From Candidatus Coprovivens sp. (GTDB lineage Bacteria > Bacillota_I > Bacilli_A > RF39 > UBA660): a stretch of 64,000 bases of DNA. The stretch is from contig JBJFGS010000025.1 in assembly GCA_051892935.1 (NCBI GenBank), positions 80,813-144,812 of the forward strand. The letters are read 5' to 3'. This document shows positions 4,341-16,210 of the stretch, in pieces. A program made the translations under genes and the position numbers. The stretch's first letter is position 1, and each line of letters starts with the position of its first letter. Below the pieces are notes generated by a model that did no database searches, had not been told where the DNA came from, and saw nothing but the letters and a program-made list of their open reading frames with translations.

Positions 4341-4825
4341 TTCTTCCTTGCTTGAACAACGGCTCTCAATTTTTTTGAGTATTCTAGCTCCGCTTTTAAA
4401 TATAAATTTTCTTCTTCCAATCTTTTTATTTTTTCTTTATCTGTTTCATTTTCTTTTTTCTTTGTTACTTTAGGCATAGTTGACCGTCCTCGCTTTCGTT
4501 CAACTATATTATAACCATTTTCTATATAATTTTTAATCCAATTTTGTAACATTCCATAACTTAGTAAACTCATATCCAAAGCAACAGACCATACGGCCTC
4601 ACCATTAATTAAAACTCTATCAATAGCTTCTTGTTTTTCGAATCTTGTATGATTTTTATTTTTACCAGCTCTTAAAATATCTATTCCGTGTTTATCAATT
4701 AGTGCAATTAGATAATTTATTAGACATTTTCTAACTTTATACTTATTTGATAAACTGCATATGGACATTCCATTCTTTTTATCATTATACAAATTTATTT
4801 TATCTTCATAAGTTAATTTTGACAT
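4319..4825 (-). CDS. IS3 transposase orfA (HTH)
   Basis: 168-aa ORF with an HTH-like N-terminus and a leucine-zipper-like LEEENLYLKAELE. It ends in an A-rich gaaaaag stretch where IS3 elements normally frameshift into orfB. Confidence 0.8.
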   Translation of the reverse strand: MSKLTYEDKINLYNDKKNGMSICSLSNKYKVRKCLINYLIALIDKHGIDILRAGKNKNHTRFEKQEAIDRVLINGEAVWSVALDMSLLSYGMLQNWIKNYIENGYNIVERKRGRSTMPKVTKKKENETDKEKIKRLEEENLYLKAELEYSKKLRAVVQARKNQQQKKK

Positions 4826-4900
4826 ATAAAAACCTCGTTTCTATTTTGTCCAAGAAACGGGGTTCATATCAATACTCAAATCTACTTTTTTATTTAATAA

Positions 4901-5812
4901 TTAAACTTTTTCTACTAATTTAATAGATTTATCTACTAAGTAATTAATATTTTCATCTCTACATACTGTATCTTTTTTAGTATGAATTTTATCTATATAT
5001 TCAAAATGCTTTCCTCTAATTACTGAACAAACACCTACACCATTAGTAAAATTAGCTTGATCAGATGGATAAATAGCTCCTTTAGTAATCATATCAGTAA
5101 TAACATTATTATCACTAGTATAAACATCTTTTAACAAATCTACATTTTTAATAGCTTTTTTATTAAAAATAAACATAATTTTATCTCCATCAGAAACACA
5201 ATCAAAATTAATTAGTAGCTTTTCTTTCATAACATCCTTATGCTTAGAAGCAAAAGATGCAGAACCTATAAGTCCAGATTCTTCTAAATCAAACAAGATA
5301 AAAGCAACTTTATCTTTTAAATTATCAGGTATTTTATTAATCATTTCTAGAATAGTTAATACACCAGATGTGTTATCATTAACAGTAGATTTATTTGCTG
5401 GACCAAACATTATTAAACAAACAAATAATATTATAATAAAATCATATATAAGTTCTAATAATAACTCATTAATTGGAAACAAAAATGAAATTCCAATAGT
5501 AATAAAAGCAGAAACAAATACAATTAAGAATAATAATAAAATTTGATATAAAACATAAATAAAAATATTTGTAGGTGTAATAAAATTAGGAACAGGTAAT
5601 ACAGCACAAGTATCATAATGAGCCGTAAATAAAACCTTAGCTTTACTAACATCACCAATAACTATATTTCTACTACCAAAATATCCTTTTTCAATTGATA
5701 TGTCATATTTAGAATCTTTTAATTCCTCTTTAACATAACTAATAAACTCATTTTTTTGTTTTTTATTTTTTCTAACCATATACTTATTTAAAATAGTATC
5801 TTTATACTTCAT
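4901..5812 (-). CDS. M28-family metallopeptidase with internal TM segments
   Basis: FTAHYDT and FILFDLEESGLIGS metal-ligand motifs. Start moved to the ATG at 5812 (MKYKDTIL), preceded by ggagg. The longer track ORF starts inside the upstream terminator. Confidence 0.7.
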   Translation of the reverse strand: MKYKDTILNKYMVRKNKKQKNEFISYVKEELKDSKYDISIEKGYFGSRNIVIGDVSKAKVLFTAHYDTCAVLPVPNFITPTNIFIYVLYQILLLFLIVFVSAFITIGISFLFPINELLLELIYDFIIILFVCLIMFGPANKSTVNDNTSGVLTILEMINKIPDNLKDKVAFILFDLEESGLIGSASFASKHKDVMKEKLLINFDCVSDGDKIMFIFNKKAIKNVDLLKDVYTSDNNVITDMITKGAIYPSDQANFTNGVGVCSVIRGKHFEYIDKIHTKKDTVCRDENINYLVDKSIKLVEKV

Positions 5813-5825
5813 ATAAACTTCCTCC

Positions 5826-5849
5826 AAAAAAAGAGCAATCATTGCTCTT
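5826..5849 (-). terminator. Rho-independent terminator
   Basis: On the minus strand: aagagca-atgat-tgctctt followed by ttttt. It overlaps the stop of the 56-aa ORF. Confidence 0.6.
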
Positions 5850-6018
5850 AATAATATATTAACATTCCAAAAATAGATATCAAAGAACCTAAAATCATAA
5901 CAAGAGCCATAATCCAACCAACAATTTTCATTACTAATTTTCTTTTTTGATTGGCAGTCATTTTTTTCTTTTTAGGTTTAATTTTTTCTTCGACTTCATC
6001 TTTAATTTTTTTTGCCAT
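5848..6018 (-). CDS. Small tail-anchored membrane protein (56 aa), absent from the ORF track
   Basis: MAKKIKDEVEEKIKPKKKKMTANQKRKLVMKIVGWIMALVMILGSLISIFGMLIYY. Strong RBS agaggtga 6 nt upstream; lysine-rich N-terminus plus one C-terminal TM helix. Confidence 0.55.
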   Translation of the reverse strand: MAKKIKDEVEEKIKPKKKKMTANQKRKLVMKIVGWIMALVMILGSLISIFGMLIYY

Positions 6019-6102
6019 TTAAAATCACCTCTAACTATATAAACTAAATATAATTTATCATATTTTTCACCTTAAGTAAATAAATTTAATCAGGTGAAAA
6101 AT

Positions 6103-6669
6103 ATGATAAGAATAATATCGAAGTATAAAAATATCTATATATTTCTAATAACACTAGCTATAATCGGTGCAATAAGTGGTTATCTATATTATCAGATTCA
6201 ACCAACTAAAACTAAAGAAGAAATAAAAACAAACGTCAACATCAAAGAAAGCATAAATTCAAGAGTAAATAACTTATCTAAAAACTTAAAAAATAATATA
6301 AAAATATTCTTTTATTCACTATTAATAATACCTATAATAATAAATATCTTTAATATATTTTATAAGCCTTTCGAAATAGGTTTTATTTTTAATTTATTAT
6401 CAAAATATAATATTAAACTATCATTAATATATACAAACATATACTTAAATATTCCTTTTATAATAAGTATCATCCTAACTAGAATAAGTATAACTTTCAT
6501 ATATAATATAATAAAATACATTATAATAAGAGATAATAAATCAAAAGTATTAATAAAAAATACATTTAAAAAATACATTATAATAATAATTATTTCAATA
6601 CTATACGATATATTAATTATCATCACTAGTCCTTATATAAACAGATATTTAATGACATTTATTAAATAA
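6103..6669 (+). CDS. Polytopic membrane protein, SpoIIM-like architecture
   Basis: ATG at 6103 preceded by aggtga. About 188 aa with an N-terminal TM helix and several C-terminal ones. The SpoIIM resemblance is by size and topology only. Confidence 0.5.
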   Translation: MIRIISKYKNIYIFLITLAIIGAISGYLYYQIQPTKTKEEIKTNVNIKESINSRVNNLSKNLKNNIKIFFYSLLIIPIIINIFNIFYKPFEIGFIFNLLSKYNIKLSLIYTNIYLNIPFIISIILTRISITFIYNIIKYIIIRDNKSKVLIKNTFKKYIIIIIISILYDILIIITSPYINRYLMTFIK

Positions 6670-6700
6670 TAATGTTATAATTAATAATAGAGGTGATGAT

Positions 6701-8368
6701 ATGGAAGCACTAGCTATCAGCGCAGCAAATTTAAATACCATAGAAGAAAACTTAGGAGCAGTTGCCAAAGAATTATCTGGAGTCATAAATAATGTTTCAA
6801 CAGTAAATGATCAAGTAAATAAAGTAGAATCAAAAGTAGAAACACTTAATGACGAAGTAAAAAGCCTAGTTAAAGAAATAAGAGAAACTACTATAATAAC
6901 AAACGCTCGTCAATCTATTATGTATAACAACTCAGAAATAGAAAAAAAATATGGATACTACGATAAAGTAAGAAGAACAACTGAATCCCTATTAGATGCT
7001 ATTGAAAACTCATCAATAAGAAAAAATTCTCTTCAAGAACTAAATCAAGAAATTATTTTAAATAATCCAAATTACTGGTTATCTTCTGCTTTAGCTGCAT
7101 TATCATCATGGTTATTAAACGATCGTACAAATACCGAAAAAGAATTAAATAACGCATTAAAAAAAGATAATAAAAAAACAAGTCTTTTCTTCTGTTTGAT
7201 AAATTTAAAATTACAAAGAACTCAAACATCTTTAAATTGGTTAAATAAATATCTATCTCTTCAAAATCCAACTAAATTAGATAAAGATTTTATAACTATC
7301 CTTGATTTAATTGCAACAGGTACTTTTGGTGATGAAGCCAAAAATACAGTATTAAAAAAAATAAATTTCTGGTTTAATAGTCTTAACTCTGAAAAAGAAA
7401 TACAAAACGAACAAAAAAGCATATGGAGCAATTTTTTAAAAACAAAACAAGATACCGATATAAGAATGCCAAATTTAGAAAACTATTCCCCAGATGTATT
7501 CAAACTAAAAAACAACTTAGCAATAACATCAACTTATATAAATGTCCTTAATCATTTAGAAAACATTATAAAAAGCGACACATCAAATAAAGGAATAAAC
7601 GAAATAATAAATAATTTAATATACGAATACGAATCAAATGAACAAATATATCAAAAAGACAATTTAAAAAATAATCTTATTATAGAATGTAATGGTAATA
7701 GAGAAGAAGCCGAAAAACTATTTAAAAAACAAGAAAGTATTTATAACAATGAAACCAATCTTCTAACCCTTTTAAGCAACATTATAATATATAAAAATTC
7801 ATACAGTATTAGTAATGAAACACAAAAAATAGCTTTATCACTAATGAAAGAATACATCCAAAACGCTATTGAAGAAATGAATGAAGAAATAAGTAAAGAT
7901 AACATCAATATATCAATAGACAAATTTAAAACAACAACCAAAGATGGAAGTAATTTAAAAGAAGCAAAACAAGACTTAGAAGCTTATCTAAGTACGATAT
8001 TTAATGAAGAAGATAAAGATTTAATAATTACTCTTTTAATAATAAATATTCTAGGAATAATAGGAATATTCATAACTTTAAACAGCAAAATTCTTTGTAC
8101 ATTATTAATAATAATAATTCTATTAGGAAATTTCATTTTACTATTTAAATTAAATCAAAGAAATAGGCTAAGAACAAGAGAAAAAAATAAATTGAGAATC
8201 AATATAGGAAATATCCTTGAAAGAGTCTTAGCAGAAACAACAGATTACAACAACTTAATGTTAGAAGACAACGAACATTATATAGAATTAAAAACATATC
8301 TAAACAATCTAGAAGCTGAAAACTACACAAAAAGTAACGACGAAAGAAATATTAATATAGGAGAATAA
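6701..8368 (+). CDS. Coiled-coil protein with two C-terminal TM helices (unknown function)
   Basis: 555 aa; RBS agaggtga. N-terminal heptad-like NLNTIEENLGAVAKELSGVINNVSTVNDQVNKVESKVETLNDEVKSLVKEIRE. TM pair LIITLLIINILGIIGIFITL and LCTLLIIIILLGNFILLFKL. Confidence 0.75.
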   Translation: MEALAISAANLNTIEENLGAVAKELSGVINNVSTVNDQVNKVESKVETLNDEVKSLVKEIRETTIITNARQSIMYNNSEIEKKYGYYDKVRRTTESLLDAIENSSIRKNSLQELNQEIILNNPNYWLSSALAALSSWLLNDRTNTEKELNNALKKDNKKTSLFFCLINLKLQRTQTSLNWLNKYLSLQNPTKLDKDFITILDLIATGTFGDEAKNTVLKKINFWFNSLNSEKEIQNEQKSIWSNFLKTKQDTDIRMPNLENYSPDVFKLKNNLAITSTYINVLNHLENIIKSDTSNKGINEIINNLIYEYESNEQIYQKDNLKNNLIIECNGNREEAEKLFKKQESIYNNETNLLTLLSNIIIYKNSYSISNETQKIALSLMKEYIQNAIEEMNEEISKDNINISIDKFKTTTKDGSNLKEAKQDLEAYLSTIFNEEDKDLIITLLIINILGIIGIFITLNSKILCTLLIIIILLGNFILLFKLNQRNRLRTREKNKLRINIGNILERVLAETTDYNNLMLEDNEHYIELKTYLNNLEAENYTKSNDERNINIGE

Positions 8369-8370
8369 CT

Positions 8371-8547
8371 ATGAACGAAGAACAATTTAAAAAACTAGAT
8401 ATAGGCAATGAAATAAAAATAAAACCAGCTATTATTAATCTTCCAGAAAAAAAAGATAAAGATAATAAAAATGATGAAAAAATAATAGTCGAACTTCCAA
8501 CATGGAACATAGAACCACCTATAGAAATAAAAAGAGGCGAACAATGA
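8371..8547 (+). CDS. Small protein (58 aa), absent from the ORF track
   Basis: MNEEQFKKLDIGNEIKIKPAIINLPEKKDKDNKNDEKIIVELPTWNIEPPIEIKRGEQ. RBS aggag lies 8 nt upstream, inside the end of the previous gene. Its TGA overlaps the next ATG (caATGAca). Confidence 0.6.
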   Translation: MNEEQFKKLDIGNEIKIKPAIINLPEKKDKDNKNDEKIIVELPTWNIEPPIEIKRGEQ

Positions 8548-8978
8548 CATACGAAGAATGGTTAAATACAATTGAAGAATTAAAACACCCAAACCTAAGC
8601 ATAGATAATCTAAATAAAATAAAAAACACCTCCTTAAATGAAAATATTAATCCTTTATTAATTCCTAAAATAGAAAATTTAGTTAAAGAAAGATTAAACA
8701 ACAGCATAAATAAAATAATTTTAAATCTTAGTGAAATATTTAGCGATATAAACTACTTAGATCTAACACTACTAAATTTTAAAAAAGAAATAAACTATAT
8801 ATTAGAGATAATCTCTATAAAACAATTACCAGAAGAAAAACAAAAAGAATTAAAAGACATGATAAAAGCCGAAAGTAATAATGTAATAGAAATTCTAAAT
8901 AAAGAAGCACAAAAGCTTGATTACACAGGTTCCTTATCATCAATAATAAATAACTATAGAATAAAATGGAGTGAATAA
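8544..8978 (+). CDS. Hypothetical protein (144 aa)
   Basis: Start placed at the ATG at 8544 (MTYEEWLNTIEEL), which forms an ATGA overlap with the upstream small ORF. The track start at 8502 lacks an RBS. Confidence 0.65.
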   Translation: MTYEEWLNTIEELKHPNLSIDNLNKIKNTSLNENINPLLIPKIENLVKERLNNSINKIILNLSEIFSDINYLDLTLLNFKKEINYILEIISIKQLPEEKQKELKDMIKAESNNVIEILNKEAQKLDYTGSLSSIINNYRIKWSE

Positions 8979-8979
8979 A

Positions 8980-10476
8980 ATGAATTACAATGAAGCAAAA
9001 GAATACTTAAAAAGATATTTAAAAGCAAGAATACCAGTTATTATAATTAATACAGCAGAAAAAAATCGTTCATTAAGATTAATTAAAGAAATTGCCAATG
9101 AAGCAAATATGAATTTTAATTTATATCAAATGTCTCAAGGAATATCTGATTTAAAAACAAATACAATAAAAAGCGAAGATAAAACAATAATGAGTGCCAT
9201 TGATTACATTGTAAACGAAATAAGACACCAAGAAAATAGTAATTTTATCATAAGTGATATATCAGATATATACGAATCAACCACCATTTCAAGGTACCTT
9301 GTAGATGTAATAGAAAAAGCAGAAACCATGTCTGGAGTAATAGTTTTAGTTACAAACGAACCAATTTGGTCAAATATTCAAAGATTAGGAATAACAATCA
9401 AACTAAACTACCCTACAGAATCAGAATTAAAAGAAACAATAATGAACACTATTTCTCCTTATAAAAACCAAATTGAAATAGAATGGGATGAAATAGACTA
9501 TGTAAATGCTGCAACATATCTTCAAGGATTAAGTGAAATGGAAGTAAAAAATATTATCTCATCATTAATTGTAAAAGGTTCAATAAAAAAAGAAGATTTA
9601 AAAGAACTAAAATATGCAAAACAAACTTTATTTAATGAAATAGCAGGGTTAGAAGCTATTGAAGTAGATGATGACTTTCAAATAGCTGGACTAGATAATT
9701 TAAAAGAATGGTTATATGAAAAGAAAACTTTAATGGATCCAGCAAAAAAAGAAGAGCTATCAAAAAGAGGAATTGCTGCTCCTCGAGGAATTCTACTAAC
9801 TGGAGTACCAGGTTGCGGAAAAAGTCTTTGTTCAAAAGCAACAGCAAGTATCTTTAATATTCCCTTATATAGACTTGATTTAGCAACTGTTCAAGGTCAA
9901 TACGTTGGTCAATCAGAAAAACAACTCAAAGAAGCTCTAGATACAGCAGAATACGTTTCCCCTTGTGTTCTTTGGATTGATGAAATAGAAAAAGGATTAA
10001 ACGATTCAAATTCTAGTGTTACATCAAAAATGATTGGCCAATTCCTATTTTGGTTACAAGAATGTGAAAAGCCCGTATTCGTAATAGCATCAGCTAATAG
10101 CGTTGAATCACTACCACCAGAACTAATAAGAAAAGGACGTTTTGATGAAATATTCTTCGTTGATTTACCAAACGCATCCGAAAGAAAACAACTACTAAAA
10201 TTATATTCAAATAAATATTTAAAAGTAGAAATAAGTGAAGAACTAAAAAACAAACTAGTCTCAATAACCGAAGGATTCGCAAGCGCTGATATTGAGGCAA
10301 CAATTCGTAATATAGCATATAAATTAATTGCCAATAAAGATATCGAATTAACAGAAAGACTTATAATAGAAGAATTATCAAAAGTAGTATCACTATCCAA
10401 AACAAATCCAGAAAAAATAGAAAAAATACGAAAATGGGGACAAGAAAGAGCAACCAAAGCATCAAAAGATATATAG
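8980..10476 (+). CDS. AAA+ ATPase (classical clade) with a degenerate N-terminal AAA-like half
   Basis: Walker A GVPGCGKS, Walker B VLWIDEIEK, second-region/Arg-finger PPELIRKGRFDEIFFVDLP. The N-terminal ~260 aa (PVIIINTAEKNRS...VIVLVTNEP) lack a P-loop. ATG at 8980 is preceded by ggag. Confidence 0.85.
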   Translation: MNYNEAKEYLKRYLKARIPVIIINTAEKNRSLRLIKEIANEANMNFNLYQMSQGISDLKTNTIKSEDKTIMSAIDYIVNEIRHQENSNFIISDISDIYESTTISRYLVDVIEKAETMSGVIVLVTNEPIWSNIQRLGITIKLNYPTESELKETIMNTISPYKNQIEIEWDEIDYVNAATYLQGLSEMEVKNIISSLIVKGSIKKEDLKELKYAKQTLFNEIAGLEAIEVDDDFQIAGLDNLKEWLYEKKTLMDPAKKEELSKRGIAAPRGILLTGVPGCGKSLCSKATASIFNIPLYRLDLATVQGQYVGQSEKQLKEALDTAEYVSPCVLWIDEIEKGLNDSNSSVTSKMIGQFLFWLQECEKPVFVIASANSVESLPPELIRKGRFDEIFFVDLPNASERKQLLKLYSNKYLKVEISEELKNKLVSITEGFASADIEATIRNIAYKLIANKDIELTERLIIEELSKVVSLSKTNPEKIEKIRKWGQERATKASKDI

Positions 10477-10484
10477 GTGATAAA

Positions 10485-11312
10485 ATGAAAGAAAAAAAAG
10501 ACATCAAATATCTTGTCAAAAGTAACAATTACATAGGACTATTATTCTTCGCGCTAGTACTAGCATCACTATTATATATATTAAAAAAAGAAGAAACAAC
10601 ATTTCAAAACATCGAACCAACTATGAATGAAATAACAAACTTACAAGAACAACCTAAAGAAATAACAGAGCCAACAAAAGAAATATCAGATCTCCAAAAC
10701 TATCTAAATACCGGAGATCCAAACACATTTAATATATATCAATCACATTATATATTAAATGAAAAAATAACAAAAGATAACCTTAATAACGAAACTCTTC
10801 TATATATGGCATATAAATATATAGAAAAAACAACCGACTTCACAAACTATATAAACTACCTGGGTTGTGATGAAGCTCAAATCATAGGACTAGATAATCA
10901 AATAACACAATGTGGTGGAACCAAAATAAATGCTACTACTTATACGATGAACAGATATATTACAAAAGAATTATTAAATAAAACAATCAAAAAAATATTT
11001 AACATAAATCTAACTCAATATACAAACTTTTATACAAGTGAAGATAATCTATGTTACTATTTAAAAGACGAATTTTTATGTGTTTCCCATCAAACAAATA
11101 AAATAACAAATTATGGCGAAAAAGAATTTCAAAAAGCATACAAATATAATAATAAAATAGAAATTATAGAAAAATATCATTTCATAAATAATGGAATATA
11201 TTACAAAGGTTTTAATAGCCAAGAAATAGGTGAAGGATATTATAAAAGTACCTTCAATAAAATAAATGGTTCATATTACTGGGAAAGCACAGAGTATTAC
11301 GAAATAAACTAG
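10485..11312 (+). CDS. Membrane-anchored protein (N-terminal TM), unknown function
   Basis: ATG at 10485 follows aggtga. TM helix IGLLFFALVLASLLYIL, then a ~240-aa Asn/Tyr-rich domain. Confidence 0.7.
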   Translation: MKEKKDIKYLVKSNNYIGLLFFALVLASLLYILKKEETTFQNIEPTMNEITNLQEQPKEITEPTKEISDLQNYLNTGDPNTFNIYQSHYILNEKITKDNLNNETLLYMAYKYIEKTTDFTNYINYLGCDEAQIIGLDNQITQCGGTKINATTYTMNRYITKELLNKTIKKIFNINLTQYTNFYTSEDNLCYYLKDEFLCVSHQTNKITNYGEKEFQKAYKYNNKIEIIEKYHFINNGIYYKGFNSQEIGEGYYKSTFNKINGSYYWESTEYYEIN

Positions 11313-11372: not shown

Positions 11373-11408
11373 TAAGATGTAAAATATAAAAGAAAGGAAT
11401 TGGTAAAA

Positions 11409-12176
11409 ATGCGTAAATTAAATGAATTATTTCAAGAATTAGGAATATCTAAAGTAAGATTAGCAAAATATTTAGGAGTTTCAAGACAAATGGTCTATAA
11501 CTATCTAGAACTAAATGATATAAATAAATGGCCAAAAGAAAAAAAATTATTACTATTTAAATTATTAGATATAAATGATAGTAACGCAATAGAAGATATT
11601 CAAGTAACAACAGACTACTTAATGAATGTTGAAAGTAGATTAAATCAAGGAGTAAAAAGTACGGCTGAAATGGATAATGGTTTAAACTTCAAAGGTTTAA
11701 ATAAAGAATCACAAGTACTCCTAAGCGATATAACTTATCTTCTAAAAGAAAAATTAAGTGATGAGACAAAAGAAGAAAACTACTATGCTATTTTATATCT
11801 ATATCATCTACTACAATCTTTAGATAATGTTCCAGAAATTAAATATATATTTGGTTATATGAGTAAAACAACAGGATTTACCAATCCAGAAGAATATAAA
11901 TTTCAAGAAGATAAACAATTTATTTTTGAAGGTATCCTATACTCAGCTTTAACATTATACAACAACGGAGGAGCATCTCGTTCTAAGTTAGCCGAATCAC
12001 ATAAACGTTTTGTACAAGAAATAGAACAAAAAAATGAAGAAAAACTTTCTCGTACACAACAACTAAATACAATAAAAATTCAAGCACTTAAAGAACTAGG
12101 ATTCACAGAAATAAACGAAAGCAATGCTGCCGAAGTATTTGAAAAAATAGCAGAAATTCAATCAAGAAAGGTTTAG
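11409..12176 (+). CDS. HTH-domain transcriptional regulator
   Basis: N-terminus MRKLNELFQELGISKVRLAKYLGVSRQMVYNYLE is a typical helix-turn-helix. The remaining ~200 aa were not recognised. Confidence 0.7.
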   Translation: MRKLNELFQELGISKVRLAKYLGVSRQMVYNYLELNDINKWPKEKKLLLFKLLDINDSNAIEDIQVTTDYLMNVESRLNQGVKSTAEMDNGLNFKGLNKESQVLLSDITYLLKEKLSDETKEENYYAILYLYHLLQSLDNVPEIKYIFGYMSKTTGFTNPEEYKFQEDKQFIFEGILYSALTLYNNGGASRSKLAESHKRFVQEIEQKNEEKLSRTQQLNTIKIQALKELGFTEINESNAAEVFEKIAEIQSRKV

Positions 12177-12209: not shown

Positions 12210-12791
12210 ATGAAAAAGAAAATAATAATATTATCTAGCTTACTATTATTAATTAGTGGATGTAAAGAAAAAGAAATAGAATGTGAAGAGCAAAAAGAAG
12301 AAACACTAATAAAATATAATAATACAAAAATAACCGAAAAAGATGCTCTAGAAGAAACAAAAGAATATATCTTTCCAGTTATATTTGAAAAAGTAATAGG
12401 AGATATTTTAACAGAAGAAATGAAGGATAAACTCGAAGATGGAAATAACTACGCAGAAGAAACAATAGAAGAACTAAAAACTTACTATGAAGATGAACTT
12501 GAAAAAGCAATAATATCCTATACATCATATAAAACAATAGAAGAATATAAAAGATCAATTTTAATAAGTTATTTACAAGAAGAATATTTTAAAGAATATA
12601 TTAGCAATAAAGAAAAAATAGATTACAACGAAATTACCGATGATAATTTAACTAATTATTATAAAAAATATTATGTTGAGAGTATAAACGACTTATTAAA
12701 AAAATATAATGTAACATTCGAAAATAAAGATTATAAAAAGATGTATGAAAAATATATAGAAGAAAAAGAAACTTACTATAATAATAACTAA
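12210..12791 (+). CDS. Lipoprotein, unknown function
   Basis: Signal peptide with lipobox LLLLISGC; acidic Glu/Lys/Tyr-rich mature part; RBS aaaggag. Confidence 0.75.
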   Translation: MKKKIIILSSLLLLISGCKEKEIECEEQKEETLIKYNNTKITEKDALEETKEYIFPVIFEKVIGDILTEEMKDKLEDGNNYAEETIEELKTYYEDELEKAIISYTSYKTIEEYKRSILISYLQEEYFKEYISNKEKIDYNEITDDNLTNYYKKYYVESINDLLKKYNVTFENKDYKKMYEKYIEEKETYYNNN

Positions 12792-12812
12792 AGCACATTT
12801 TGTGCTTTTTTA
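12791..12812 (+). terminator. Rho-independent terminator
   Basis: aagcac-atttt-gtgctt followed by tttttt. Confidence 0.8.
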
Positions 12813-13004
12813 ATAATTTAAAGTGTCCTATTAGCATAATAAGAATAGAGAAGGGGAAGATAAAGAAATTAAAGAAAACATTCTTAAAAATAGCTAAAAA
12901 CGCCCAAAAATATATAACATAAATAAAATTAATAAGTATGAAAAAATAATAATTAAAAAATAAAAAGATCAAACTCATAAACATAACATTTGTTCGCTAG
13001 CAAA

Positions 13005-13049
13005 AATTAAAAAACTCCCCCTATTCAAAAATGCAAAAATTAATAGGGG
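13005..13049 (-). terminator. Candidate minus-strand terminator
   Basis: On the minus strand: cccctatt - 16-nt loop - aatagggg, then gag + tttttt. The only G/C-containing hairpin with a T run in this gap; the loop is large. Confidence 0.45.
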
Positions 13050-13102
13050 ACTCGAATTAAAAAAATACAAATAAAACATTCAAAAAAAAGATACAATTAT
13101 TC

Positions 13103-13410
13103 AATGAGATAATGAAACTAATCATATAATTAAATCTCGAATCCTAATTTGAAATAACCACAGTCCATAGATTGATAATTTATCAATTATTTAAATGTCG
13201 ATTCCAATTTCATAATACAGATTACGAAATATTAATTCCACGAGATGATAAATTGTTCATCTTTTAAAATCTCGATGCCGATTTAAAACAATAAATAAGA
13301 AACGAGACGATGAAGTATTCATCAAAAGAAATCTCGATTCCTAATTTAAAAGTTTAAATAGAAATCAAGCTAAAGAACTAATAAGCTAACAGAAATTCGT
13401 TTCCAATAAA
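13103..13410. repeat. Array of five degenerate ~61-74-bp hairpin units
   Basis: Cores aAATCTCGAwtCCnAATTT at 13132-13150, 13193-13210, 13267-13284, 13329-13347, plus a degenerate one at 13393-13408. Each is preceded by a nested inverted repeat, e.g. cgagat-gatga...tcatc-...-atctcg (13241-13274) and cgaga-gatgaa-gta-ttcatc-...-tctcg (13303-13336). Confidence 0.7.
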
Positions 13411-13607
13411 TGCCAAACCAAAAACGAACAAATGTATAACATATAAGAAAATAATAATTTTAAATTTTTTCTTAAATTAAAGATTAATTAAATAATAATT
13501 ATATAATATATATTAATAAAATAAAACTAAAGAAAAATAACATAATAAAGAAATAAATTAACAAAATAATTTTCTATATATAAATGAATTTTTAAATTAA
13601 ATATTTA

Positions 13608-13635
13608 ACTTCGTATAATATATATTATGTTAACC
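13608..13635. other. dif: dif-like XerC/XerD chromosome-dimer resolution site
   Basis: ACTTCGTATAA-TATATA-TTATGTTAACC. This matches 24 of 28 positions of B. subtilis dif as I recall it (ACTTCCTAGAATATATATTATGTAAACT). The right arm matches the E. coli XerD arm TTATGTTAAAT at 9 of 11. It sits at the gene-orientation switch, 1.7 kb from a Xer gene. Confidence 0.75.
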
Positions 13636-13718
13636 AATTAAATATTTTATAAAAAATAAATACTATTATTCATAATAATTATATTTATAAAGTTTAAAAA
13701 AGCTCATATTAAAAACTT

Positions 13719-14447
13719 CTATAAAGATATGATAATTATTATAATTCCAAATATAATCCCCATAATAAGCCATTTATAACATTTATAAGAGATTCCTTCT
13801 TTTAAAATTTTTAAAACACTAAGACTAATCATAATACCACCAGTAATTATTAGAATAATACTCATAATAAAATCATTAATAAAATTATTTAAAAAAATAA
13901 TACTAAATAAAGCACCAAAAACTTCCCCCATAGAACTAATAATAGTCATAAAAAAAGCTTTCCCCCTACTTCCAGTACTATAATAAATAGGTAAACTAAT
14001 ACATATTCCTTCCGGAATATTATGAATCATAATAATAAAACTCATCTTCAAACCTAAAGAAAGATTATTACTACTAGTTAAAGCACAAATAACTCCTTCA
14101 GGAACATTATGAACAAATAAACTAAGCATACTAAGAATACCTATCTTATATAAGCTACTCTCCCCTACAATATTTCTATCAATAACAAAAACAATTATAT
14201 AACCAATCAATAATAAAATTAAACCATACACAAAAATACCAAATATACTAAAATCATTATTAACCAATAATAAACCATCAGGAATTAATTCTATAATAGA
14301 GATTAAAAACATAACTATAAAAGATAACCCCATTGAAAAAGAGATTAACTTATTTTTATATTTTACATCAATAAATAATAGTATATTTCCTAATATAGTA
14401 GCAAATCCAGCTATAAAAGTTATAATTAAAGGATAAATATTTTTCAT
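13719..14447 (-). CDS. zupT: ZIP-family divalent metal transporter (ZupT-like)
   Basis: 242-aa polytopic protein with the paired HNVPEG and HNIPEG motifs of ZIP transporters. Confidence 0.8.
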   Translation of the reverse strand: MKNIYPLIITFIAGFATILGNILLFIDVKYKNKLISFSMGLSFIVMFLISIIELIPDGLLLVNNDFSIFGIFVYGLILLLIGYIIVFVIDRNIVGESSLYKIGILSMLSLFVHNVPEGVICALTSSNNLSLGLKMSFIIMIHNIPEGICISLPIYYSTGSRGKAFFMTIISSMGEVFGALFSIIFLNNFINDFIMSIILIITGGIMISLSVLKILKEGISYKCYKWLIMGIIFGIIIIIISL

Positions 14448-14530: not shown

Positions 14531-14656
14531 ATGAGCAGAAAAGAAAATAATCAAAAATCTTCTAGTAGATGTAATAATAATGCTAGAAGCAAAGAAAGAT
14601 CTAATGCTAGATCAAATGAACAAAAACAATCTGGATCAAAAAGCCAAAATAAGTAA
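14531..14656 (+). CDS. Small basic protein (41 aa), absent from the ORF track
   Basis: MSRKENNQKSSSRCNNNARSKERSNARSNEQKQSGSKSQNK. Strong RBS aggagg 7 nt upstream; terminator immediately downstream. Confidence 0.5.
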   Translation: MSRKENNQKSSSRCNNNARSKERSNARSNEQKQSGSKSQNK

Positions 14657-14697: not shown

Positions 14698-15311
14698 ACC
14701 AAACAAGTAACTGCTTCTCTATCTTTTGTCTCACTATTAACATAATAGCAAGTACATAAATTTTCCCTGCAGCTACCACAATCAACAGCAGTAGCACATT
14801 TCGTTAATCTAATTTTCTCGCTATTTTGAGGGCTAACTGAACCAGGGTTATTAACAACTTTTTCTAAACCTGCAACTTTAGTTGCTCCTTGCTTATTTAA
14901 ATTAGTATATGAACTAGGAATAATTATAGTAAAGCCATCATCGCACTTAGTTTCATACAAATTAGTAAGTTTTTCGTTAAGTACTTTAAATTCAGCCAAT
15001 TGAGCGATACATGAATTTAAATTTATATTATCACAATAATATTTATTATCTAAGTAAGTAAACCAACTACCAACTATATCCAAACTATAATTCTGTATTT
15101 CTTTTCTTTTAGCATCTTCTTTTTTATATTCCTCAAGTAATTCTATTACAGGTTCTAGTTCACTTACACTTCCACTAACATAATACTTAGTCAAACTATT
15201 CGTAACAATCTCCGTATAATCTGAAGTTTTAAAATCAATAATTTTTTTACCTCCAAAAATAATTCCTACAATCAATAATATTATTAGTATAATAGGTAAA
15301 GCCTTTTTCAT
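14688..15311 (-). CDS. Membrane-anchored protein with Cys-rich C-terminus
   Basis: N-terminal TM ALPIILIILLIVGIIFGG. C-terminus reads CATAVDCGSCRENLCTCYY. Its ATG overlaps the Xer stop (ATGA). Confidence 0.7.
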   Translation of the reverse strand: MKKALPIILIILLIVGIIFGGKKIIDFKTSDYTEIVTNSLTKYYVSGSVSELEPVIELLEEYKKEDAKRKEIQNYSLDIVGSWFTYLDNKYYCDNINLNSCIAQLAEFKVLNEKLTNLYETKCDDGFTIIIPSSYTNLNKQGATKVAGLEKVVNNPGSVSPQNSEKIRLTKCATAVDCGSCRENLCTCYYVNSETKDREAVTCLVKK

Positions 15312-16210
15312 AAATCCTCCTTATAAATTTTATTTCTTGGATGACATTGATAATCACTCTTTATTTTCTCATTTACTAAATGAGCATATATTTGTGTAGT
15401 AGATATATCTTCGTGTCCAAGTAATTCTTGTATAATTCTCAAATCTGCCCCATTTTTTAATAAATGAGTAGCAAAAGAATGTCTAAGTACATGAGGAGAT
15501 ACATTTTTCTCTATTCCAGCTCTTTTACATTCTTTCTTTAATATTTTAAAAAATCCTTGCCTACTTATATTAGTCAAACTATTAGAAATAAACAAATAAT
15601 CGGATACTTTATCTTTTAAAATAATATTTCTATATTCCGTAACATAAATAGTCAAATATTTTAAAGCTAAATCAGTAACAGGAACTATTCTTTCCTTTTT
15701 GCCTTTCCCCATAACTCTTATAAAACAATTTTGAACATCAACATCAATTAATTTTAAATTACACAATTCAGTTATTCTAAGCCCTGTTGCATAAAGTAAT
15801 TCTAACATTGCTTTATTTCGATAGTCATAAGGGGTTAATAAGTTTATATTAAGTAACTTATTTACTTCATCTTCAGTTAAATAAGTTGGTAATTTCCTAG
15901 CATTCTTAGGACTAGAAATATTACTACAAGGATTTTCCTTTATAATATTATCATTAACTAAAAAAGTATAAAAAGAATTAATAACTGTTGTATAATGAGA
16001 AATAGTTCTAGAATTCTTATCTTGTATTGTAGCAATATATTTTTTTAAATCATCATAAGTATTATTAACGACATTTCCTTTAAAGAAAATATCAAAGTCT
16101 TTAAGATCATTTAAATAACTCTTTAAAGTATTATTAGATAACTTTCTTTCGAATTCTAAATACTTTAAATACTTATTAATATATTCACTAGGAACATATT
16201 CATCTTTCAT
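15308..16210 (-). CDS. Tyrosine site-specific recombinase, XerC/XerD family
   Basis: N-terminal core-binding YLKYLEFERKLSNNTLKSYLNDL. Catalytic ATGLRITEL, HVLRHSFATHLL, LLGHEDISTTQIYAHL (R-H-R-Y set). Confidence 0.9.
   Translation of the reverse strand: MKDEYVPSEYINKYLKYLEFERKLSNNTLKSYLNDLKDFDIFFKGNVVNNTYDDLKKYIATIQDKNSRTISHYTTVINSFYTFLVNDNIIKENPCSNISSPKNARKLPTYLTEDEVNKLLNINLLTPYDYRNKAMLELLYATGLRITELCNLKLIDVDVQNCFIRVMGKGKKERIVPVTDLALKYLTIYVTEYRNIILKDKVSDYLFISNSLTNISRQGFFKILKKECKRAGIEKNVSPHVLRHSFATHLLKNGADLRIIQELLGHEDISTTQIYAHLVNEKIKSDYQCHPRNKIYKEDL

Follow-up and report, generated by a model that had tools for sequence, protein, structure and literature searches.

A conserved tandem array of hairpin-like units beside dif in Candidatus Coprovivens and related RF39-type Bacilli

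The array and its setting beside dif

In this study we analysed a 64,000-nt stretch of DNA from Candidatus Coprovivens sp. (assembly GCA_051892935.1, contig JBJFGS010000025.1, positions 80,813 to 144,812), hereafter called the window, and describe an array of five repeated units that lies close to a dif-like Xer site. The genus has been assigned to the order RF39, family CAG-1000 (PMC8035907). The array is situated in a gap of 927 bp (12792-13718) that separates two convergent gene groups. Between 12985 and 13718 no open reading frame (ORF) of at least 40 aa was found, and the array block is thus non-coding.

A first-pass annotation, made earlier from the sequence of the window, had listed a repeated core, and the copies were found where it had placed them (AAATCTCGAATCCTAATTT at 13132 and AAATCTCGATTCCTAATTT at 13329). 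A shorter form of the core, TCTCGATTCC, was detected with at most one mismatch at 13135, 13196, 13270 and 13332, and additionally at 15508, which is likely a chance match. A covariance model of the unit (R1), trained on 52 units from 12 loci, returned five minus-strand units of approx. 56 nt spanning 13094-13410, with start-to-start distances of 63, 62, 74 and 61 nt, as the earlier spacings had implied. With the filters switched off, the best score elsewhere in the 64 kb was 14.4 bits (E 1.7). Since R1 detected five units here and nothing else above that score, we concluded that the array is real and local to this spot in the window.

In the minus-strand sense the unit consensus was uGAAAUUGGMAUCGAGAUuu-(A/U-rich, 5-10 nt)-GAUGRunAnUUnAUCAUCUCGUGGAAU. 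The unit nearest to dif, unit 1 (13355-13410, minus strand, as are all units; UUGGAAACGAAUUU...), is degenerate and scored 22.9 bits with R1 (E 0.042). Unit 2 (13292-13347) reads AAAUUAGGAAUCGAGAU, 7 nt, GAUGAAUACUUCAUC-GUCUCG-UUUCU and scored 65.3 bits; as an alternative its core GGAA is able to pair with the UUUC at the 3' side. Unit 3 (13230-13285; AAAUCGGCAUCGAGAU, 7 nt, GAUGAACAAUUUAUC-AUCUCG-UGGAAU) gave the score of 70.3 bits. Unit 4 (13157-13211; AAAUUGGAAUCGACAU...AUUGAUAAAUUAUCAAU...AUGGAC) scored 55.4 bits. Its outer helix is eroded in the window genome, where the core at 13193 is left without a CGACAT partner; two of the related loci described below, L002 and L069, retain CGAC/GUCG at this position. 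Unit 5 (13094-13150; AAAUUAGGAUUCGAGAU...AUCUCAUUGAAU) scored 52.7 bits.

The dif-like Xer site is 28 bp long (13608-13635; ACTTCGTATAA-TATATA-TTATGTTAACC) and occurs once in the window. The XerC-type arm is directed toward the array and the XerD-type arm toward the side of the ZIP and xerD genes, and the GC-skew regime switches at dif. The units lie 198-514 bp from it, so that the closeness to dif noted earlier was borne out. In all aligned loci dif formed an invariant block.

The plus-strand gene group encodes a 158-aa protein, an AAA ATPase, a 292-aa protein, a 258-aa helix-turn-helix (HTH) protein (11400-12176) and a lipoprotein, and is closed by a terminator at 12790-12808. The minus-strand group comprises a XerD-like recombinase gene (15308-16210), a gene for a Cys-rich membrane-anchored protein and a ZIP transporter gene. 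The ZIP protein shares 100% identity with one encoded by a Candidatus Coprovivens sp. metagenome-assembled genome. The AAA ATPase (8971-10476, plus strand) gave sub-threshold matches to models of the anti-phage ATPases IetA/IteA, which were no better than its generic CDC48/FtsH-type AAA matches. Between the genes of the Cys-rich protein and the ZIP transporter an ORF of 34-43 aa is present on the opposite strand (14531-14656, plus strand, in the window; 4792-4917, minus strand, in L001). This ORF was called in every syntenic locus for which gene calls were returned, and no family match is on record for it.

Downstream of the array the word GAGAAGGGG was found at 12848-12856 (plus strand). It includes GAGAAGGG, the SpoIIIE recognition sequence of B. 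subtilis (PMC5869595, PMC3936747). In the window GAGAAGGG has a single exact copy, approx. 750 bp from dif and directed toward it, and one-mismatch variants at 13971, 33532 and 44800 (minus strand) are likewise directed toward dif. The GAGAAGGGG word at 12848-12856 is kept in all aligned loci. Further copies occur in L002 and L003 between the ZIP stop codon and dif, on the opposite side of dif and again directed toward it. GAGAAGGG may be an FtsK/SpoIIIE-orienting motif, in small numbers; as a frequent KOPS-like word it was dropped, with one exact copy per 64 kb.

At one relative, L005 (GCA_011262095.1), an inovirus-like prophage (5766-10765) lies immediately behind the ZIP gene and occupies the position of dif. 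It encodes Zot, an HTH repressor and a replication protein of the RepSA/G2P type, and is apparently a Xer-exploiting integrated element of this clade. The 5 kb of L005 that were examined showed no array.

Occurrence and age of the array in relatives

Relatives were gathered as syntenic contigs through the ZIP neighbour and by DNA-pattern scans of genome and metagenome collections. The first-pass annotation had considered that the units might not be conserved in any relative. The array was found at the same spot in about 20 further related loci from RF39-type Bacilli (L001-L004, L006/7, L008, L047, L049, L051, L069, L089, L107, L109, L111/117, L114, L116, L118, L120, L125 and L128), with 2-7 units per locus. 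A scan of the genome collection with a pattern built on T1, the terminator-like hairpin that follows the array, gave 53 matches, among which only L069 and L089 were true family members; this pattern was too narrow. Other Bacilli matches of the same scan (L058, L066, L071 and L093) were unrelated terminators, and L097 contained only a diverged unit that was not scored by R1.

Of the 19 family loci that were inspected, 18 contain the dif site, at 149-252 bp upstream of the first unit. Wherever a locus includes dif, the array keeps this distance from the XerC-type arm and the same orientation. It is always placed between dif and the convergent HTH gene (about 20 loci), also in lineages without the ZIP gene. 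The DNA between dif and the array could not be aligned among loci; the units, T1 and both arms of the inverted repeat that brackets the block are conserved. No unit match was detected elsewhere in about 220 kb of flanking sequence, and blastn against plasmids and phages gave no match to the array. A scan of viral contigs with a two-core pattern gave 38 matches, all of them chance or tRNA-like.

Orthologous units were collinear and 70-84% identical, whereas paralogous units averaged 60%. The orthologue of unit 2 in L002 was 80% identical and the collinear orthologues of unit 3 were 73-84% identical. Spacings differed by 1-2 nt between orthologues. Judged by these identities and by the collinear order, the array is old and each of its modules has been kept individually, which excludes a recent satellite as well as a miniature inverted-repeat transposable element (MITE).

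Several rearrangements were observed among the loci. A segment of about 30 nt (CTCGCGGACGATTTGAAATTGGAATCGAG) is present in L002 (approx. 6420-6450) and L069 and as its reverse complement in L047 (approx. 6365-6400) and L049; inversion of this segment within the array turns a unit core into an anti-core. Past T1 an extra inverted unit was found in L118 (3150-3205, minus strand) and in L128 (1498-1553, plus strand). The extra unit of L047, L049, L107, L111 and L125 runs in the direct orientation, and a second hairpin (CCCCUACU...AGUAGGGGG) comes after it; this suggests a separate transcription unit of one module. Between this second hairpin and the HTH gene L116 alone carries an insert of about 180 nt (approx. 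7010-7190; ...GGGTAGGCAATTGGAGCC...GGCACCGTCACGAC...), which is GC-richer and structured-looking and had no Rfam match at the gathering score.

Boundaries of the block and putative signals for transcription

On the minus strand the block ends in the G/C hairpin (13017-13049) and U-run (13009-13016) that the earlier annotation had described. This element, T1 (13009-13049, minus strand), consists of CCCCUAUU, a 16-nt loop and AAUAGGGG(G), followed by AGUUUUUU. It folds at -10.6 kcal/mol and is unidirectional for the minus strand in the window. With a loop longer than 8 nt it escaped a simple terminator scan. In 21 of the 22 loci scanned a homologue of T1 comes after the array and shares its sense; 13 have a U-run of at least 4, and the mean U content downstream of T1 is 6.8 of 12. 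L002 and L047 have a GGGG upstream that may compete with the hairpin. In L128 an inverted unit lies upstream of T1, whose U-runs there run in both senses; L118 has an inverted unit too, but its reverse-sense T1 U-run is weak. Downstream of T1 an ORF of 110 aa was called (12652-12984, minus strand), part of which overlaps the convergent lipoprotein gene at the 3' end of the latter. Pfam gave no match for the ORF, no array-strand gene was called downstream of T1 in the related loci with gene calls returned, and the ORF is probably spurious.

In distant loci the upstream genes or operon end in their own terminators before dif. Together with T1 this implies a promoter in the interval from dif to the array. 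The AT-rich region 13436-13480 (minus strand) is a candidate promoter, with a -10-like TTATAT at 13446-13441. A -10-like hexamer was found 3-13 nt upstream of the conserved box described next in all close loci.

The block is bracketed by an 11-bp inverted repeat, which was found to be exact (12986-12996 and 13425-13435). Within the window alone the repeat is not beyond chance, as 11 of 100 shuffled sequences gave at least two matches; its arms are nonetheless conserved in orthologous loci. The 5' arm (13425-13438, minus strand; tATACATTTGTTCG in the RNA sense) is a quasi-palindromic box (xxAC-AWWT-GTTCG). ACATTTGTTCG is conserved in 14 loci, where it marks the 5' edge of the array, and L111/L117 have the variant ACAAATGTTCG. 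The 3' arm (12983-12996, minus strand; CGAACAAATGTTAT in the RNA sense) is a second copy of the box (GAAC-AAAT-GTTA). It is kept just after T1 in the window, L002, L008, L047, L049 and L051, and with one or two changes in L001, L003 and L004, in L003 and L004 in a "direct" register. It is absent in L107, L111, L125 and the distant group.

The first-pass annotation had offered the arms as the terminal inverted repeats (TIRs) of an element. This did not hold: both arms are missing from distant family members, L047 and L049 carry a further unit outside them, and each arm is quasi-palindromic by itself (CGAAC-AAAT-GTTA for the 3' arm and CGAAC-AAAT-GTAT for the complement of the 5' arm; GAAC-AWWT-GTT(A/G) in related loci). 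Because of their absence in distant members and of the unit outside them, two putative operator copies, to which a dimeric regulator would bind, are a better reading of the arms than the ends of an element or an RNA helix that closes the block. The LexA operator of Gram-positive bacteria is GAAC-N4-GTTC, with clostridial variants (PMC4234289). Both arms resemble it in reading CGAAC-AWWT-GT(T), with one perfect GAAC/GTTC half, and in their promoter-type positions; they differ in an imperfect second half-site (GTTA or GTAT). The GAAC-AWWT-GTT-type box was not enriched in the window. We regard LexA-box-like operators as a lead only.

RNA gene, protein-binding DNA or mobile element

The first-pass annotation had proposed, among other readings, a tandem-hairpin non-coding RNA (ncRNA) transcribed from the minus strand. 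This reading is the best supported: the array is conserved and non-coding in about 20 loci and is followed by a terminator-like hairpin of the same sense. The covariation that its helices might have displayed was not significant (see below). We consider it probable that the block is an RNA gene, when weighed against an array of protein-binding sites in double-stranded DNA (dsDNA); the two roles are not mutually exclusive. The upstream operon terminates before dif, and the wobble-type variation in the core pairs favours the minus strand.

The 3' strand of the unit, AUCAUCUCG, has two possible pairing partners on the 5' side, CGAGAU and (A)GAUGA. Such pairing would give a bulged hairpin in one of two registers, flanked by GGA/GGC-AU motifs. 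In place of UGGAAU, some units end in a complement of a core, the anti-core (CUCGAUUCC, CUCGAUUCCA, UUUCC or UUGCCAAU), and the two can pair at a few conserved positions. In L128 this gives a junction hairpin of 10 bp (CUCAAUUCCA-AAU-UGGAGUUGAG), and the hairpin recurs in L114, where two of its positions are G.U and A.A. When the units were folded, unit 2 reached a minimum free energy (MFE) of -15.4 kcal/mol (z -3.5 vs. shuffled sequences) and unit 3 of -10.7 kcal/mol (z -2.4). Both were more stable in the minus than in the plus sense, and the block as a whole folded at -99 kcal/mol in the minus sense vs. -68 in the plus sense. Among 82 units the variation at the five best pairs was nearly all compatible with wobble pairing (G.U 44 vs. 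A.C 4). Position 15 is an invariant G, and its partner at position 51 is C or T. Position 45 is T in 81 of the 82 units (C in one) and its partner at position 31 is A or G. Positions 29, 30 and 45 each have a single base in 81 of 82 units, and their partners vary by transitions.

A number of results weigh against the RNA reading. The nested helices described by the first-pass annotation are clear in units 2 and 3, but units 1, 4 and 5 folded no better than shuffled sequences (z about 0 for units 4 and 5), and over the whole region the plus strand had the better z-score. Two proposed flanking pairs carry 50 A.C mismatches, which are wobbles on the opposite strand. Two alternative unit structures, S1 and S2, corresponding to the two pairing registers, were tested for covariation. 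Neither was significant, with 81.4% of cells paired vs. 80.7% in shuffled alignments; few pairs change on both sides, and the covariation score was reached by 17-24 of 500 shuffles, at a divergence that is low for such a test. RNAalifold gave no consensus structure for the 82 aligned units, and for nine full-length orthologues it gave scattered weak helices with weak covariation (-0.95). The earlier statement that helices are maintained while loops differ, as in a structured RNA, lacks statistical support. The stems are conserved in sequence as much as in pairing, and the linkers in length and not in sequence. Furthermore, the 16-nt loop of T1 is atypically large, the U-run is weak in some loci, and a consensus promoter scan did not single out any promoter in the region.

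These results leave room for the main rival, in which the units are dsDNA sites of a phased nucleoprotein array beside dif with a function at the terminus. It could serve as a fork barrier, in terminus anchoring, in a centromere-like organisation or in the control of Xer recombination like cer/psi, and could be bound by the adjacent conserved HTH protein of 255-258 aa or by a Xer/FtsK accessory factor. The first-pass annotation had suggested such an iteron-like terminus array, and we retain it as an unlikely but serious contender. The fixed position (149-252 bp) and orientation with respect to the XerC-type arm in 18 loci speak for it, as do the nested inverted repeats in each unit, a conservation that lies mostly in sequence rather than covariation, and the inversion of one unit in L118 and L128. 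In distant members the inner part of the unit is a near-perfect 20-bp palindrome (AGATGATTA-NN-TAATCATCT), a further point against the RNA reading, with a further GAGAT one helical turn upstream. Linker lengths are kept and the spacings (62/63, 73/74, 53, 115-117, 125-127, 158 and 188-190) are mostly near multiples of 10.5 bp. The phasing is weak, however, as 4 of the 10 spacing classes other than 62 are out of phase and the test was suggestive and not significant. The unit is asymmetric, with an insertion of 7-10 nt on one arm only, which fits a bulged hairpin better than a dimer operator, and the strand-asymmetric variation at the 31/45 and 51/15 pairs is unexpected under symmetric dsDNA recognition. 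The same-sense terminator-like hairpin after the array in nearly all loci likewise argues against this reading.

The HTH protein has homologues in all loci, and its gene always adjoins the array. It is 89-100% identical among relatives, compared with 70-89% for XerD and 41-96% for ZIP, and is also more conserved than RarA/MgsA (83-93%). L071 has no array, yet the gene is linked to dif there as well. We found 6148 homologues of the protein. Searches of Pfam, NCBIfam, PADLOC and PDB sequences gave weak generic HTH matches only, with no solved relative among the PDB sequences and no match to the RTP or Tus families. Its AlphaFold model had a pLDDT of 55, too poor for a fold search, and the want of a recognisable family together with this poor model counts against the dsDNA reading. 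A tblastn search gave no RTP homologue in the sequence searched, which is a partial genome.

Known arrays offer several comparisons for a DNA role. The genes tus and rtp adjoin Ter sites, sopC of the F plasmid consists of tandem 43-bp units each with an inverted repeat, and in sites of the cer/psi type about 180 bp of conserved accessory DNA, bound by accessory proteins, abuts the XerC-binding arm. The array resembles these systems in its direct repeats with inverted repeats, conserved spacing, adjacent HTH gene and terminus/Xer location. It differs in having no detected RTP, Tus or ParB homology, in its asymmetric units and in the same-sense terminator. The array is on the side of the XerC-type arm at a roughly constant distance; the 150-250 bp that abut dif are not conserved, unlike the accessory DNA of cer/psi. 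A replication terminator of the RTP-Ter or Tus-Ter type was rejected, with no RTP match in the DNA searched, an HTH protein outside the RTP and Tus families, and units on one side of dif only, where a fork trap would need both.

As a mobile or selfish repeat the block could be a MITE with 11-bp TIRs, an orphan CRISPR, a ToxI-like array or the relic of an integrative mobile element exploiting Xer (IMEX) at dif. The exact inverted repeat around the block, the tandem units of roughly constant period with a terminator after them, and dif as an integration hot spot, with the inovirus-like prophage of L005, are in line with such an origin. We consider it extremely improbable, since the array is a single orthologous locus, undispersed in about 20 genomes, with no match in plasmids, phages or viral contigs and with modules that are collinear between species and diverged from one another; moreover, the arms are absent in distant members, and L047 and L049 have a unit outside them. 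The MITE suggested by the first-pass annotation is rejected on the single orthologous locus, the lack of dispersal in about 290 kb of clade DNA and the old, collinear modules. The individual forms were dismissed as well. No second dif-like site for an IMEX relic was present in the window. The repeats are too degenerate for a CRISPR array, the AU-rich "spacers" are conserved in length and position between species, and no cas-type domains were found among the neighbour proteins. The type III antitoxin RNA arrays ToxI, CptI and TenpI have a promoter, tandem direct repeats and a Rho-independent terminator, and ToxI-type repeats are near-identical and 34-45 nt long (PMC3401426). The array shares the tandem direct repeats, the following terminator-type hairpin and a candidate promoter before them, but its 62-nt repeats have an identity of about 60%, T1 is not followed by a toxin ORF, and the array is kept at one conserved chromosomal position. 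A type III toxin-antitoxin system was thus rejected.

The first-pass annotation had been unable to match the array to a known class, and our searches agree with this. With the covariance models of Rfam 15 at the gathering score, no match was found in the whole window and 13 related loci. A permissive search of 12700-13800 (E up to 10) gave three chance-level matches only (snoRNA, RAGATH-25 and Ysr35), at 10-24 bits vs. cut-offs of 49-428. The family is undescribed in the libraries searched (Rfam 15, plasmids and phages).

The closest resemblance in architecture is to CsrB, RsmY and RsmZ, stand-alone small RNA (sRNA) genes with a variable number of hairpin modules with GGA motifs and an intrinsic terminator, and the multivalency suggests titration of a partner as in these RNAs. 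A decoy of the CsrB/RsmZ type that sequesters CsrA via GGA would fit the enrichment of GGA in the window RNA (7 vs. 2.7 expected, p about 0.01), the two copies that flank each hairpin (GGAAU...UGGAAU), the 2-7 tandem modules and the terminator. CsrA sites need GGA. Here GGA is not invariant, which counts against CsrA: about a third of the units have GGC as their 5' motif, about 35-40% overall have GGC, GUC or AGA there, and the 3' motif is often AGA, UGA or UUC. The GGA motifs are located at the helix flanks and not in hairpin loops as well, and the conserved element of about 45 positions in modules of approx. 62 nt extends far beyond a CsrA site. The array has no sequence or covariance-model similarity to any Csr/Rsm family of Rfam, and its location beside dif has no counterpart there. 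When the CsrA proteins of B. subtilis and E. coli were used in tblastn, no csrA was found in the clade DNA searched, about 290 kb and only a fraction of a genome. CsrA in Bacillota is tied to flagella and FliW, and RF39 bacteria are reduced and presumably non-motile. CsrA is an unlikely partner, and we hold a decoy of this kind to be very improbable. A search for Hfq by tblastn likewise found none in the clade DNA searched, which is uninformative for whole genomes.

Returning to the RNA reading, the minus strand would be transcribed in the direction leading away from dif, with a start at about 13435-13440 and an end at T1 and its U-run at about 13009, which would yield an RNA of roughly 430 nt with five ancient modules of approx. 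62 nt. Each unit would fold into a bulged hairpin with flanking GGA/GGC-AU motifs, and some cores would pair with anti-cores. The RNA would present 5-14 near-identical sites of sequence and structure to a sequence-specific partner, and act by titration or scaffolding like decoy sRNAs built from repeats. Multivalent decoy or scaffold binding appears to be the most economical mechanism. Expression may be controlled via the CGAAC-AWWT-GTT boxes at the 5' edge and just after T1. In its specific form, a clade-specific structured ncRNA gene on the minus strand acting as a multivalent binding platform, we give this proposal about an even chance. Targets in trans were sought as well, and no complement to the core or to the 3' strand was found in the window.

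The nearest conceptual precedent for an RNA at a Xer site is Rcd of ColE1. This small regulatory RNA is encoded inside the cer site, is short and non-repetitive, and is transcribed from Pcer in multimers (PMC4393325). It acts on a protein and not by antisense pairing (PMC4393325). Like Rcd, the candidate RNA would have its gene linked to a Xer site, on the accessory (XerC) side, but at about 430 nt it would be longer, modular and chromosomal, and it would start about 170 bp from dif. We know of no chromosomal Xer site to which a tandem accessory array or a regulatory RNA is linked; the sole precedent known to us is the plasmid site cer with Rcd and its accessory sequences. The array might be a chromosomal counterpart of cer/Rcd, that is, a dif-coupled and possibly LexA-box-regulated RNA or RNA/DNA-protein assembly, which with the HTH protein would link dimer resolution or termination to the cell cycle in the reduced genomes of RF39. 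We consider this improbable at present.

If the array is transcribed, it would represent a new modular sRNA family from RF39, a large group of gut bacteria that is uncultured and little understood. If it is not expressed, it would be a conserved cis element of modest interest. The array is fixed beside dif and an unusually conserved HTH protein across divergence at the genus level or deeper, and the locus is a compact system with about 20 natural variants of 2-7 modules. Either outcome, a dif-linked RNA or a dif-linked nucleoprotein array, would add a component to the ways in which small-genome Bacillota arrange or signal what happens at the terminus.

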